A DNA stretch of 63,992 bases, counting the filler, from Malassezia furfur (lineage: Eukaryota), in the NCBI GenBank assembly GCA_052055015.1. It is 23 parts of 23 records of this genome, joined end to end, with 100 filler letters (N's around TTAATTAATTAA, not from the genome) between each part and the next. Parts side by side here need not be neighbours in the genome. Positions count along the whole stretch, not along the records: positions 39,921 to 42,628 come from JBQJIT010000859.1; 22 more parts are not named here. One strand, 5' to 3'. A program made the position numbers and the translations under genes. Within the stretch, counting starts at the first letter, position 1; each line of letters begins with the position of its first letter. Shown here piece by piece: positions 30,345 to 48,223 of this stretch. The notes under the pieces were generated by a model. It was given only the letters and a program-made list of their open reading frames with translations, was not told the DNA's origin and ran no database searches.

Positions 30345-30451
30345 GGTAGGATGGCCGAGTGGTCTAAGGCGCTTGATTCAAGTATTGTTGAATATTTCAA
30401 CGCAAGGTCGTTGCTCCCAAGTTATCCTGGGTTCGAATCCCAGTTCTACCA
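30345..30451 (+). tRNA. tRNA-Leu(CAA), intron-containing, atypical 3' half
   Basis: Acceptor stem GGTAGGA/TTCTACC with A73, A box TGGCCGAGTGG, anticodon CAA at 30379-30381, T arm CTGGG-TTCGAAT-CCCAG, downstream oligo-T Pol III terminator. Confidence 0.88.
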
Positions 30452-39820: not shown

Positions 39821-39920
39821 NNNNNNNNNNNNNNNNNNNNNNNNNNNNNNNNNNNNNNNNNNNNTTAATTAATTAANNNNNNNNNNNNNNNNNNNNNNNN
39901 NNNNNNNNNNNNNNNNNNNN

Positions 39921-40083: not shown

Positions 40084-40132
40084 GGCGTCGAAAGCCACGT
40101 GGCGCGCAGGCGGCACGTGGTGTCCCGCCACG

Positions 40133-42297
40133 ATGCTCGCTCCGTCGCAGGCGAACGCGCTGATCTACGCGACGCTGTGTGGCTTCCTGCTGATCGGCCT
40201 GTGGGCCGGCTACCACACCAAAAACAAGCGCGAGTTCATCAGCGGCGTGCGCACACAGTCGGGTACGTCGCCACTGCTCACGCAGCGCTGCCGCTCGCGC
40301 TGAACTGGATCTCGTCGAGTGCGTGTGGGAGGCCTGGGCGACTCGGTCGGCCCGCCCGGTAAGGGCGCACTCCCTCGGTCTTCGTCGTTTTCGTTTCGTC
40401 GTGTCCTGCGCGTCAGGCAGGTAGGGTCAGCAGCCACGGGTGTCCGCGCTCTCTAGGGCCTGCGCATCGCTTGCGAACGCGGGCCATGGGCGCGGGCTGA
40501 GATTACACCGTCACGTCCGCCGGACGTAACCTGAACGAGATCACGCTCGCGAAGGGAGTGCTGCTTACGCCGCGGGGCGTTGGACCTAGCGCTAGGGCCT
40601 GGTGCGTGGGGCTAACCACAGACATGTCGTCGTCGCTGCTCGAGGCGTATCCGCAGCTGGCGCTCATCCCGAACGCGGGCATCCTCGGCCTCGCCGCGTA
40701 CGCGTTCGCGACGATCGCGCCCGTGTGGGCGTTTGGCGTGTTCGGGCCGCTGATCCGCCGCATGTGCCCGGACGGCTTCACGCTGAGCGAGTTCATCCGG
40801 CGGCGCTTTGGGTGGCCGATCGGGGTATTTAGTGCGCTGGTGTTTATCGGCTTCATGTTCTGCTTCATGATCGTCGAGCTGAACACGTACGGCTCGATCC
40901 TGTACACGCTGCAGCCGAACCTCGGCAAGTCCGTGCAGTGGGTCGGGCCGCTGGTGATCGCCGTCACCACGACGCTCTACACCGCGTACGGCGGCTTCAA
41001 AGCGTCGCTGTGGACGGACAACTTTAACGCAGTGTGTGTCATGGTGATGATCATCGTCGCGGGCGTCATGATCGGCACGCGCCTCGACATCTCGCACGAC
41101 GCCGTCGAGGCGAGCGGCCTGCTCCGCCCGCAGAAGCTCGGCGGCGAGCTGTGGTACATCCTGCCCGTGTCGATCACCTTTGCGCAGATGTTCAACCAGG
41201 GCTTCTGGCAGCGCGCGTTCGCCTCCAGAAACAACCGCAGCCTCTACCTCTCGGTCGTGCTCGCGAGCATCCCCCTGTTCGCCATCTGCTTCGTCGTCGG
41301 CATGGCCGGGCCCGTGGCGCAGTGGGCCGGCCTCCAGGCGCCGCCGAACGACGAGGACGACGGGTCGTATGCGCTCTTCTACATCCTCGCCGTGATGCCC
41401 AACTGGGTCACGGGCGTGGTGCTCGTTCTTACCGGCGTGCTCTCCTCGAGCGCGTACGACACCTTCCAGTCCGCGCAGATCAGCGTGATCGAAAGCGACC
41501 TCTTCCTCGGGCGCGTCAACATCTGGTGGTGCCGCCTGATCCTCATCGCGCTCAACGTTCCGTGCGTCGTGCTCGCGGCGATCAACATCGACATCCTGCA
41601 GGTGTTCATCGTCGCGGACCTCGCGTCGCTCGCGATCGTGCCCGCCGTGTTCCTCGGCCTGATCCCCTGCCTGTACTTCTACAAGGGGATCGACGTGTTC
41701 GTCGGCGGGTGCGGCGGCTTCCTCACCGTGTTCGTGTTCGGCACCATCTTCTACGGCGACGCCAAGCAGGGCGGCGCGCTCATCGGCATGCCCGACGGCC
41801 TCTACGTCGAGGACTACAGCGTGCTCGGCGCGTTTTTCGCCGCGCCGCTCGGCGGCCTCGGCTTTGCGCTCGGCTCGTGCGCCGTGCGCATCGCCGTGTG
41901 CTACGTGTACGCGCGCGCGACCGGCACGCCGTTCACCGCGCTCGACAAGCCCGCGTACCACACCGGCGACTACGTCCTCCCCGAGGACCGCCCCGCGTCC
42001 TTCTTTGGCTTCCGCGGCTCGGGCAACCCCGAGGACGGCCGCCACCTCGAGCCGTCCACGCTCTCGGCCGACGAGGCCGAGTTCCACACCAAGCTCCACA
42101 GCACGGCGGACCCCGCGTGGATGCACTGGTGGCCGTTCACGCGGCGCGCCTCGCACACCTCGGACGGCGCGGCCGCCGACGACGCGGTCGTCGACGCGGC
42201 GGACGACAACAAGGACGCCGCGCTCGACGACCCCGCGCTCGACGACGCCGCCACCGCGTGGCCCGCCGCCCCGCAGCAGCCCACGCACACGTCATAG
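40133..42297 (+). CDS. Sodium:solute symporter-family transporter (Dur3-related, N. crassa NCU01977-like); putative thiamine or precursor transporter
   Basis: Exons 40133-40262, 40286-40318, 40622-42297 give ...RTQSALPLALNWISSNMSSSLLEAYPQLA...; many TM helices; GFTLSEFIRRRFG, YTAYGGFKASLWTD, QGFWQRAFAS. Confidence 0.9.
40429..40565 (+). ncRNA. TPP (thiamine pyrophosphate) riboswitch aptamer in intron 2 of the transporter
   Basis: P1 AGCAGC/GCTGCT, GGGTGT, long P3 (CCGCGCTC/GGGCGCGG, GGCCTGCG/CGCGGGCC), invariant CTGAGA at 40497-40502, ACACCGT, then AACCTGAA-CGAG-ATCACG-CTCG-CGAAGGGA (P4/P5). Confidence 0.93.
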
Positions 42298-42628: not shown

Positions 42629-42728
42629 NNNNNNNNNNNNNNNNNNNNNNNNNNNNNNNNNNNNNNNNNNNNTTAATTAATTAANNNNNNNNNNNNNNNN
42701 NNNNNNNNNNNNNNNNNNNNNNNNNNNN

Positions 42729-46454: not shown

Positions 46455-48223
46455 ATGTCCGGCAAACGGTCCGACGCGCTGGGCGAGCGCAGCGCCAAGA
46501 AGTCGGTGCAGACGATGACGCTGATGGACATTATTGAGCGAGTGCCGCCGAGCATGATGCAGCTGCTGGTGGCGATGGGCCCCGCCATCGACGCCGTGCA
46601 CGCTTTCCTCGTGATTGCGACCTGGCGCGGGGGCTACCGGCAGCGGGTGCAGTCGTGGCTGCTGCTGCTCGGCTACATCCTGACGTGCTTGTACGGCTAT
46701 GAGGTGCTGCGGTACGCGCCGCAGGTCGTGATCCTCGCGTACATCGGCTACCTCTCGCTGCGCGGCTCCTTCAGCCGCGTCGCCGGCCATGCGCACTGGT
46801 TGAGCGTCCGGGGAACGTGNNNNNNNNNNCGGCCATGCGCGGTCGACCGACGACGGCGCGACGAACCGCAAGATCAAGCGGGCGATCGCGCAGCTGTGCG
46901 ACATCTCCGACTTTGTCGCGGCGGTGTGCGAGACGCTCATCTACCCGCTCCACGCGCTCTTCCAGGCGCAGGTGCACGGCGTCGGCACGCACCACCTCGT
47001 CGTCTTCCTGCTGGCGTCGTGGCCCATCTGGCTGCTCGTGATGCTCCCCCCGAGCCAGTGGCTCCTGCCGTACTACTACGTGCATACCACGCTCGGGCAC
47101 CTTGCGCGCAGCGCGCCGGTCGCCGCCGTGCACCACTACGTCGCGACGCGTGCGGCGCCGCACGCCGCGGCCTTTGTCGCGTCGCATGCGCCGCGCCTCT
47201 ACGACACGGGCGCCAAGACCGGCGCCGCGCTCTCGCAGCACGTCGTGCCGCACGCGTGTGCGCTTGTGCGCGCGCTCCACGTGCGCCAGTGGCCGCTGGC
47301 GCTGCAGGTCTTCCCGCCGTTCCCGATCGCCGCACTGAGCGTGCGCCATGTGCTGCTGGCCGTCGGGTGCGTGGCGCTGACGTGGTGCTCGCCGTGGGCG
47401 ACGCTGCTGCGCGCCGCGCTGTGGCGCAGCGCGCTCGTGCGCCGCATCGTGACGAGCGCCGTGCGCGTGCTGAGCGGGAGCGAGAACGTGAGTGCCTTCT
47501 GGCGCTCGGTGGCCCCCAAGCAGCTGCGCGGCGCCTCGACGGCGCTCGTGCAGGACACGCGCCACGCCGCGACGCACGAGACCGTGTTCCAGTTCGAGAT
47601 CTACGAGAACCAGCGGTGGTGGATCGGGCTCGACTGGACCGCCGCGCTGCTCCCCAACGAGCGGCCGAGCTGGTCCGACGGCGACAACAACGCCGTGGCG
47701 CCCCCGTCGTCGTTCACGCTGCCCGCGACGACGCGCACTCGCGTGCCGTCGTCCGCGAAGCCGGGGCGCGACGACGTGCGCACCGCCGAGTGGCACTGGG
47801 TCGACCTCGAGTGGCGCGTCGCCGGCGCGCAGTCGATCACCTCGACCGTGTACACGCCGGCGTCGGCGATGCCCGCGTCCGAGGCGCAGCGGCTCAGCAC
47901 GCGCTTCGTGGAGGAGAAGCACGTCGACGACGCCGGCGCCGTGCTGGACGCGACCGACCGGCTGAAGGCCGCGACGGACGCCGCGTCCAAGGGGCCTGCG
48001 CCCGACAAGCAGGAGGCCGCGGCGCTCCAGGGCGCGGAGCAGGAGCTGCCCGAGGAGCTTGCGTCGGTCGCGCGCCCGGCGCCGCTCGCGTCGAACGCGA
48101 CCGACGTCGACCCGGAGGGCTGGCAGTACGGCGGCAATTCGTGGGAAAAGCTGAACCGCGTGAACGGGATCGGCAAGTACACGCGCCGCCGGTGCTGGGT
48201 GCGCCGCGCGGTGCTCGTCATCA
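46455..48223 (+). CDS. Pex23/Pex30-family peroxin (reticulon-like plus dysferlin domain), 3'-partial, with internal N gap
   Basis: LTWCSPWA...R; FEIYENQRWWIGLDWTAALLPNERPSWSD; EWHWVDLEW; DPEGWQY; KYTRRRCWVR. Confidence 0.88.

Follow-up and report, generated by a model that had tools for sequence, protein, structure and literature searches.

A predicted thiamine pyrophosphate riboswitch with long-range pairing in a coding-region intron of a Malassezia furfur transporter gene

The transporter gene and its long second intron

On the plus strand of a 63,992-nucleotide (nt) stretch of Malassezia furfur DNA (assembly GCA_052055015.1; filler included), here called the window, we found a three-exon gene for a transporter of the SSF family at 40133 to 42297. 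Its second intron holds a predicted thiamine pyrophosphate (TPP) aptamer, one strand of which can pair instead with a segment close to the 5′ splice site of that intron. The exons, introns and splice signals are as follows, with product lengths in amino acids (aa).

40133..40262, plus strand: exon 1 of the transporter, with its ATG at 40133, read by translation as MLAPSQANALIYATLCGFLLIGLWAGYHTKNKREFISGVRTQS
40263..40285, plus strand: intron 1, 23 nt, GTACGT ... CAG, of a size usual for the genome, read from the sequence
40286..40318, plus strand: microexon 2, 33 nt, encoding A LPLALNWISS, its final base opening an N codon
40319..40621, plus strand: intron 2, 303 nt, carrier of the riboswitch, whose removal yields an open 612-aa frame
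40319..40324, plus strand: productive donor (S1), GTGCGT, second commonest donor hexamer in the short-intron candidates of the window (6/123)
40359..40364, plus strand: GTAAGG, candidate alternative donor, +40 nt, shifting the frame and holding the first in-frame stop, TAA at 40360-40362
40421..40426, plus strand: GTAGGG, candidate alternative donor, +102 nt, in frame with the TAA retained, stop after 68 aa, +6 off consensus
40602..40607, plus strand: GTGCGT, candidate proximal donor 20 nt before the acceptor, sharing the CTAAC branch site and retaining the TAA at 40360
40612..40621, plus strand: branch site CTAAC (40612-40616) and acceptor CAG (40619-40621), by sequence reading
40622..42297, plus strand: exon 3, body of the transporter (Pfam PF00474, E=1.6e-6), ending at the stop codon

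Joining 40133-40262, 40286-40318 and 40622-42297 gives a 612-aa open frame. The exon 3 protein has 93% identity to an M. furfur protein and 53-80% identity to Ustilaginomycotina proteins that their sources name 'urea transporters'. By analogy with characterized relatives, the host is likely a thiamine-transporter gene of a Malassezia skin yeast.

For comparison we used a metagenome scan with a 26-protein profile, the only source of fungal orthologous DNA, which returned eight loci. No difference separates L001, L002 and L003 along the 1100 nt compared, so they were treated as a single lineage, and L008 was dropped as non-orthologous at 32% identity. Five orthologous lineages resulted (L001, L004, L005, L007 and L006, with L005 a close relative of L004), which together with the window make six.

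The exon structure recurs in these lineages. All five orthologous loci have exon 1, then LNWIAS, then a large intron (254, 454, 318, 1418 or 1180 nt), and the N-terminus of the transporter is found in them as well as in the protein models P0001 and P0010. The microexon motif LNWI(A/S)S is present in 6/6 lineages. It recurs in annotated proteins of M. equina, Ustilago and Sporisorium, which read across the junction as ...RTQS-(A/V)xPLxLNW(I/F)AS-N-MSSSL... and ...LNWIASNMSSSL. Because these annotated proteins span the junction 40318/40622, we take productive splicing to run from 40319 to 40621 with the microexon included.

This structure bears on a label already in print. Two surveys, in the parts available to us, place the riboswitches of M. 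furfur and M. globosa among elements that do not act on splicing (PMC11683625, PMC5882874): the gene would start at the ATG at 40624, and the aptamer would lie in the 5′ untranslated region (UTR) of a single-exon gene ('type IV'). The M. yamatoensis model P0003, which starts at MSSSLL, agrees with that placement. We regard it as extremely improbable here, since exon 1, the LNWI(A/S)S microexon and the donor, branch and acceptor signals are conserved in 6/6 lineages, since annotated proteins of M. equina, Ustilago and Sporisorium contain the upstream exons, and since the Neurospora crassa gene has the same microexon. Type IV is defined by having neither upstream splice sites nor upstream coding exons, and both are found at this locus.

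Two public gene models look faulty when compared with this reading of the exons. The M. furfur model P0001 fuses exon 1 to exon 3, omitting the 33-nt microexon (an in-frame skip that leaves 601 aa), and the M. yamatoensis model P0003 lacks exons 1 and 2.

Intron 2 is about 10 times the usual intron size of the genome. A pattern scan for short introns (candidates up to ~60 nt) gave 123 matches in the window, mostly 21-32 nt long, with GTACGT (16), GTGCGT (6) and GTAGGT (3) as the leading intron-type donor hexamers. Hence, 40319 is an ordinary donor for this genome, as GTGCGT ranks among the leading hexamers. The original prediction had given the other introns as 21-38 nt, which is roughly right for candidates with consensus donors, and its 303-nt intron 2 (GT at 40319, CTAAC at 40612-40616, AG at 40621) reads as it had claimed. 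So do GTAAGG at 40359, GTAGGG at 40421 and TAA at 40360-40362, together with the frame shift of +40 nt from the first donor and the in-frame, TAA-retaining offset of +102 nt from the second.

The aptamer in intron 2

The predicted aptamer lies near the 3′ end of intron 2 and is made up of these parts, all on the plus strand.

40429..40565, plus strand: TPP aptamer, RF00059 at 30.1 bits, pair list checked
40429-40434 with 40560-40565: P1
40436-40441 with 40507-40511: P2
40442-40493: P3 with its loop
40497-40502: CUGAGA
40513-40527: extra hairpin in J2/4
40530-40532 with 40553-40555: P4
40536-40539 with 40546-40549: P5

At its gathering score (54.3 bits), RF00059 had no match in the whole window. 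A permissive scan of 40100-40800 (701 nt) found 30.1 bits (E=7e-4) at 40426-40575, below the gathering score; this match is marginal alone, and its E scaled to the whole window would be marginal. In 6/7 orthologous loci (4 distinct lineages), sub-threshold matches of 31-39 bits occupy the corresponding position shortly upstream of exon 3, and L006 matched in its 3′ half only (21.5 bits). The RF00059 hit that the original prediction expected was therefore obtained on the permissive scan, where the orthologous loci back it, and not at the gathering score.

The motifs of the aptamer are better conserved than its score. We found the core, consisting of P2 ACGGGU/ACCGU, CUGAGA, P4 CCUG/AAGG and P5 CGAG/CUCG, in 6/6 lineages, with P4 and P5 of L006 in altered, compensated forms (P5 CACG/CGUG; P4 GCUG/AAGU, in which a C-G pair becomes G-U). 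The P1 sequence is different in every one of the six lineages, yet P1 is paired in each. This tally of helix compensation comes from a motif-anchored table and is not a formal covariation statistic. In TPP aptamers, the motifs CUGAGA and ACCUGA ... GCG-AGGGA contact the ligand. Both pocket motifs, CUGAGA in J3/2 and ACCUGA ... GCG-AGGGA in P4/P5, are present in the window, L001, L004, L005 and L007, and L006 has AGCUGA/AAGUGA. Hence the claim of a TPP aptamer in the long second intron is borne out by motifs and a position that recur in the orthologous lineages.

Unusually, J2/4 is enlarged in all six aptamers by an insertion (16-106 nt) that separates the P2 3′ strand ACCGU from P4. In the window it is 16 nt, forms a 7-bp hairpin (40513-40527) and is distinct from the usual P3 variable region. 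P3 itself is long (52 nt in the window, 52-102 nt across the lineages). RF00059 scores low because of this long P3 and the J2/4 insertion, which cmscan misaligns.

By eye, window positions 40432-40561 are letter-identical to the 130-letter M. furfur 'urea transporter' TPP riboswitch given in the available part of PMC11683625. Hence, the aptamer is solid despite its marginal score, because of the matches at orthologous loci, the conserved motif table and the identical published entry. From its motifs the predicted aptamer is real but atypical, and from published work on relatives we infer that it binds TPP.

The atypical features could alternatively mark a decaying relic that no longer binds TPP, within an intron that is spliced constitutively. 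The Rfam score below threshold, the unusual J2/4 insertion and the changes of L006 in P4 and the AGGGA region all fit such decay. We nevertheless judge it very improbable: CUGAGA, ACCUGA and GCGAAGGGA are intact in 5/6 lineages, the window included, the helices are kept by compensatory change, and the long-range pairing described below co-varies with the aptamer 3′ strand. Intact motifs, compensated helices and a covarying long-range pair together indicate selection.

A P4/P5 pattern scan of genome contigs found the motif that the fungal aptamer has at P4/P5, ACCUGA-CGAG...CUCG-CGAAGGGA, letter for letter in 22 contigs (loci L009-L030) from bacterial records (Saccharospirillum, Kofleriaceae, Bacteroidota and others). 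Fungal transporter motifs were encoded in 0/22 of them, and the same pattern had 0 matches in viral contigs. The 22 bacterial loci are presumably bacterial TPP riboswitches.

Long-range pairing between the donor region and the aptamer

Three segments of intron 2 enter the pairings considered next, and the 3′ member of the first pair lies inside the aptamer.

40367..40375, plus strand: alpha element GCACUCCCU, 48 nt past S1, a perfect 9-bp complement of 40553-40561
40553..40561, plus strand: alpha' AGGGAGUGC, 60 nt ahead of the 3′ splice site, spanning the P4 3′ strand and J4/1 and reaching two bases into the P1 3′ strand
40365..40372, plus strand: anti-donor strand GCGCACUC, pairing with 40317-40324 over 8 bp including one G-U (p=0.044)

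The strings on which the original prediction was built are in place: GAGTGCGT at 40317-40324, GCGCACTC at 40365-40372, GCACTCCCT at 40367-40375 and, at 40553-40561, AGGGAGTGC, the exact reverse complement of GCACTCCCT. Alpha' overlaps P4 and P1; hence, alpha-alpha' pairing and the folded aptamer are mutually exclusive. Long-range pairing of a strand near the donor with the aptamer 3′ strand, excluding the folded aptamer, is a part of that prediction that is supported, and the 9-bp helix was reached by 2.0% of 500 shuffles.

For each lineage, the initial part of the intron (<=120 nt) was matched against a 30-nt segment starting with the P4 3′ strand, and the longest perfect helix was compared with 500 dinucleotide shuffles. 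The longest helix (shuffle p) was 9 bp (0.020) in the window, 7 bp (0.058) in L001, 8 bp (0.052) in L004, 8 bp (0.034) in L005, 10 bp (0.006) in L007 and 7 bp (0.102) in L006. Fisher's combined p over the six lineages was 4.9e-5, or 1.7e-4 without L005. The paired sequences are unlike in each of the 6 lineages, which is covariation in a broad sense; a helix of this kind, kept in 6/6 lineages with changed sequence, is also what the original prediction had looked for in orthologues. The distance from S1 to alpha in the five orthologues is 18-96 nt.

Folding of the ligand-free RNA gave ensemble probabilities of alpha-alpha' pairing of 0.96 in the window, 0.98 in L001, 0.97 in L007 and 0.92 in L006. 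The aptamer-folded state of the window costs 3.2 kcal/mol with P1 alone enforced and 6.5 kcal/mol with P1, P2, P4 and P5 enforced. The typical binding energy of TPP exceeds 3.2-6.5 kcal/mol, so the ligand could pay this folding cost.

Such an arrangement is described for N. crassa NCU01977 in the accessible text of Li and Breaker 2013 (PMC3597705). Without TPP, alpha' in the 3′ shoulder of P1 pairs with alpha near the first donor and raises its use, giving an open frame; with TPP, P1 forms, and splicing moves to alternative donors or to retention, with stops. Mutants reported there show that pairing counts and not sequence, and the S1-alpha and alpha'-acceptor distances in that class are commonly <60 nt. 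In layout, the pairing predicted between 40367-40375 and 40553-40561 corresponds to the published alpha-alpha' interaction.

We consider it likely, with fair but incomplete confidence, that intron 2 contains a long-range alpha-alpha' TPP riboswitch of the NCU01977/DUR31 kind ('type II') that controls splicing of the transporter intron. When TPP is low, alpha' (40553-40561) would pair with alpha (40367-40375), 48 nt past the productive donor, and keep the aptamer from closing P1 and P4; the 303-nt intron would be spliced from 40319 to 40621, yielding the 612-aa transporter. At high TPP, P1-P5 would be stabilised by the ligand and alpha' withdrawn, so that donor 40319 would be used less, the alternatives being retention or donors 40359, 40421 and 40602, each reaching a premature stop. 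The direction and size of this splicing change, and thiamine transport by the product, would follow published work on relatives.

The stops themselves were read in all 4 non-productive products tested: after 137 aa with donor 40359, and after 68 aa (TAA at 40360) with donors 40421 and 40602 and on retention. A retained intron meets an in-frame stop 2-56 nt past S1 in 6/6 lineages. Because every other splicing outcome meets a premature stop, the transporter would be switched off at high TPP. The first in-frame stop lies inside GGTAAG adjoining alpha in the window and L001, and inside GGTAGA in L005; this motif beside alpha may be kept as a stop and not as a decoy donor. We rejected a conserved decoy donor at GGUAAG as the main explanation, the sites having no local +6 T.

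In support of the long-range switch we computed the aptamer motifs, their position between conserved coding exons, the alpha-alpha' complementarity with its overlap of the aptamer helices, and the stops. Several results weigh against it, besides the missing gathering-level match, the sub-threshold RF00059 score and the unusual J2/4 insertion described above. The ensemble probability of pairing is ~0 for the nominated helices of L004 and L005. A long-arm RNAduplex comparison was significant for the window, L004 and L005 only (L006 borderline; L001 p=0.35; L007 p=0.18), and in the cross-species RNAduplex matrix the cognate arm was the best partner in only 3/6 rows; that matrix is noisy and partly diagonal, and the longest-helix test was used instead. 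The 9-bp helix is shorter than the at least 11 continuous bp reported for most ascomycetes, and alpha, GCACUCCCU, is off the RGCGGYRRY consensus. Donors 40359 and 40421 are without the local consensus +6 T. Finally, two protein searches, one with the 26-sequence profile, reached no Ascomycota proteins, the profile search returning Ustilaginomycotina, Glomeromycota and unnamed proteins only. Hence, orthology of the transporter to NCU01977 rests on shared architecture and on statements in the literature.

A shortening of the donor-to-branch path by alpha-alpha' was also considered as a feature of the switch and set aside as inconsistent: the minimum-energy graph distance (free vs P1 enforced) is 29 vs 56 in the window and 30 vs 22 in L001, with no difference in L004 and L005.

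The original prediction went further and proposed a three-way exchange, in which alpha pairs with alpha' without TPP and, with TPP, the released 40365-40372 covers the donor at 40317-40324 and turns splicing off. The 8-bp helix this requires (one G-U) covers the donor from -2 to +6, shares 6 nt with alpha and was reached by 4.4% of 1000 shuffles; the isolated donor duplex has an energy of -12.5 kcal/mol, and with exon 2 cut to 7 nt the helix falls within the minimum-energy aptamer-folded structure, at a forcing cost of 0.8 kcal/mol. The exchange would also fill a gap, as the available text of Li and Breaker says that why alpha-alpha' boosts S1 'remains unclear'. However, the donor helix is found in the window only and is absent from 5/5 orthologues, a lack of conservation that weighs most against it. 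In the orthologues, the donor (-3 to +8) has a best partner of 4-5 bp that never overlaps alpha, with shuffle p of 0.75, 0.96, 0.99, 0.93 and 0.87. In L001 the donor context is identical (CGAGUGCGUGUGG), yet its alpha is GACACAGA. In N. crassa (PMC3597705 supplement, by eye), no stretch of at least 5 complementary bp joins alpha (nt 316-332) and the donor, and 6/8 pairs of the window helix are explained by one hexamer, GAGUGC, common to the donor and alpha'.

In ensemble folding with the natural exon 2, the probability of alpha pairing with the donor was 0.000 both ligand-free and aptamer-folded, and the mean unpaired probability of the donor was 0.26 ligand-free vs 0.27 aptamer-folded; the shift in donor accessibility between the states was <=0.15 in all six lineages. 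Forcing the helix cost 7.6 kcal/mol from exon 2 to exon 3 and 3.4 kcal/mol from the ATG. Because the forcing cost varies with the construct (7.6, 3.4 or 0.8 kcal/mol), folding alone does not settle the matter. On this evidence we find the three-way exchange unlikely. It is likewise doubtful that, in the M. furfur lineage, alpha gained the donor as a second partner, giving a three-state device that would be on with alpha on alpha' and off with the aptamer closed and alpha on the donor; if true, this device would answer, for that lineage, why alpha-alpha' boosts the first donor.

Two other pairings involve the donors. In the window, the productive donor (40318-40323) is predicted to be paired with exon-2 CGCGCU (40296-40301), with P ~0.8 in either aptamer state, and LAL codons constrain the exon strand. 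In N. crassa NCU01977, CACUCA ~25 nt past the donor (nt 277-282) complements donor positions +2 to +7, UGAGUG (nt 247-252), by eye; this CACUCA is not part of alpha (316-332) and sits at the margin of the deletion-critical 279-331, and a 6-bp match could be chance.

Control might instead be exerted at a proximal donor, with the aptamer masking or unmasking 40421 or 40602, as in NMT1 or in the hypothetical 'type III' of Mukherjee, and alpha-alpha' being secondary. The intron fits type III as outlined in the part of PMC5882874 available (200-400 nt, two donors separated by an in-frame stop). In 3/4 Malassezia-like lineages, a GTRNG site precedes the acceptor by 19-24 nt (GTGCGT at 20 nt in the window, GTGAGT at 24 nt in L004, GTGCGG at 19 nt in L005), a spacing typical of the introns of this genome, and the predicted unpaired probability changes between the free and folded states, from 0.45 to 0.67 at 40359, from 0.38 to 0.18 at 40421 and from 0.18 to 0.03 at 40602. 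For 40421 and 40602 this is the wrong direction, as both are predicted to be more hidden with TPP. Moreover, donors 40359 and 40421 deviate from the local consensus, a search near the L001 acceptor found no GTRNG site, the conserved, covarying feature is alpha-alpha', and N. crassa regulation needs no single alternative donor according to the accessible text of Li and Breaker (PMC3597705). Proximal-donor control is thus quite improbable in our estimate. As a separate observation, the donor at 40602, absent from the original prediction, would make 40602-40621 a candidate mini-intron of typical size inside the last part of the long intron, and its use would retain the aptamer.

Relation to published riboswitches and other features of the window

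The long-range alpha-alpha' switch proposed here resembles N. crassa NCU01977 in its SSF-family host, short intron 1, 33-nt exon 2 and large intron whose aptamer lies toward the 3′ end; in an alpha near the first donor that complements the aptamer 3′ strand; and in alternative outcomes that carry premature stops. Its S1-alpha and alpha'-acceptor distances, 48 nt and 60 nt, are short, as in that class. By eye in the supplement of PMC3597705, NCU01977 exon 2, which encodes AIPLALNFIAS, agrees in length (33 nt) and phase; hence, the intron position appears common to two phyla. Unlike NCU01977, the intron is 303 nt here vs ~600-680 nt, the helix is 9 bp vs at least 11 bp, and alpha' is shifted 5′ to the P4 3′ strand, J4/1 and the start of P1 vs the P1 shoulder, a register that L006 shares. 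The extra J2/4 hairpin and a consensus donor past the aptamer are further differences.

A counterpart with an intron of similar size is DUR31 of Candida parapsilosis (Donovan et al. 2018, PMC5997356), where the intron that holds the aptamer is 351 bp and the transporter family is called orthologous in the text available. That paper treats NCU01977/DUR31 as a thiamine transporter in Candida, with thiamine-dependent splicing and a transporter shown to import thiamine. Its authors doubted long-range pairing in a short intron, whereas the short intron here has a conserved predicted alpha-alpha' pair; alpha-alpha' in short introns thus bears on that doubt. A general statement in PMC5882874 attributes long-distance pairing to the urea-type transporters of basidiomycetes.

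As proposed here for intron 2, TPP represses NMT1 and THI4 ('type I') by diverting splicing to unproductive products. Unlike the present case, those aptamers lie in 5′ UTR introns with upstream open reading frames, and P4-P5 masks a proximal donor; here the intron is in the coding sequence and the partner lies beside the distal donor. The original prediction's state with TPP bound, which blocks S1, resembles the untested 'type III' scheme in the available part of PMC5882874.

The published 'TPPsw-UREA' of M. furfur (PMC11683625) is the same element, as given in the accessible part of that paper, and the M. globosa urea transporter entry in the excerpt of PMC5882874 is its counterpart. Those Malassezia entries are assigned to the 5′ UTR (type IV, non-splicing), whereas the evidence here points to a type II expression platform within a coding-region intron. 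Among the matches listed for riboswitch and Malassezia, only PMC11683625 concerned a Malassezia riboswitch, PMC10084760 dealing with bacterial FMN (flavin mononucleotide) riboswitches; a search for TPP riboswitch and Ustilago found none, and this limited literature contained no paper placing Malassezia copies in a coding intron with alpha-alpha'. The element is thus already in print, and what is new is its predicted setting in a coding-region intron behind a conserved microexon, with a covarying alpha-alpha' pair. Also new would be alpha-alpha' pairing in introns as short as 254-454 nt and the indication that alpha' can sit on P4/J4-1.

If the proposed switch is right, the Malassezia 'urea transporter' riboswitches would move from a non-splicing 5′ UTR class of unknown mechanism to the experimentally understood NCU01977 class. 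Long-range alpha-alpha' control would extend to Ustilaginomycotina and to introns of 254-1418 nt, including a genome whose ordinary introns are ~20-30 nt. Malassezia are skin commensals and opportunists, and TPP riboswitches have been proposed as antifungal targets in the part of PMC11683625 available, so the true expression platform matters.

Elsewhere in the window, blocks of 44 N, TTAATTAATTAA and 44 N recur every ~2.8-2.9 kb over 2814-62167 (for example 39821-39920 and 42629-42728), and none touches the riboswitch locus. The block at 39821-39920 does not interrupt a minus-strand open reading frame upstream of the transporter; hence, the blocks look like masking or linkers laid over continuous sequence. 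A single 10-N run is present at 46820-46829. The sole gathering-level Rfam match in the window is a tRNA gene at 30345-30451, with a 37-nt insertion in the anticodon arm that is presumably an intron.

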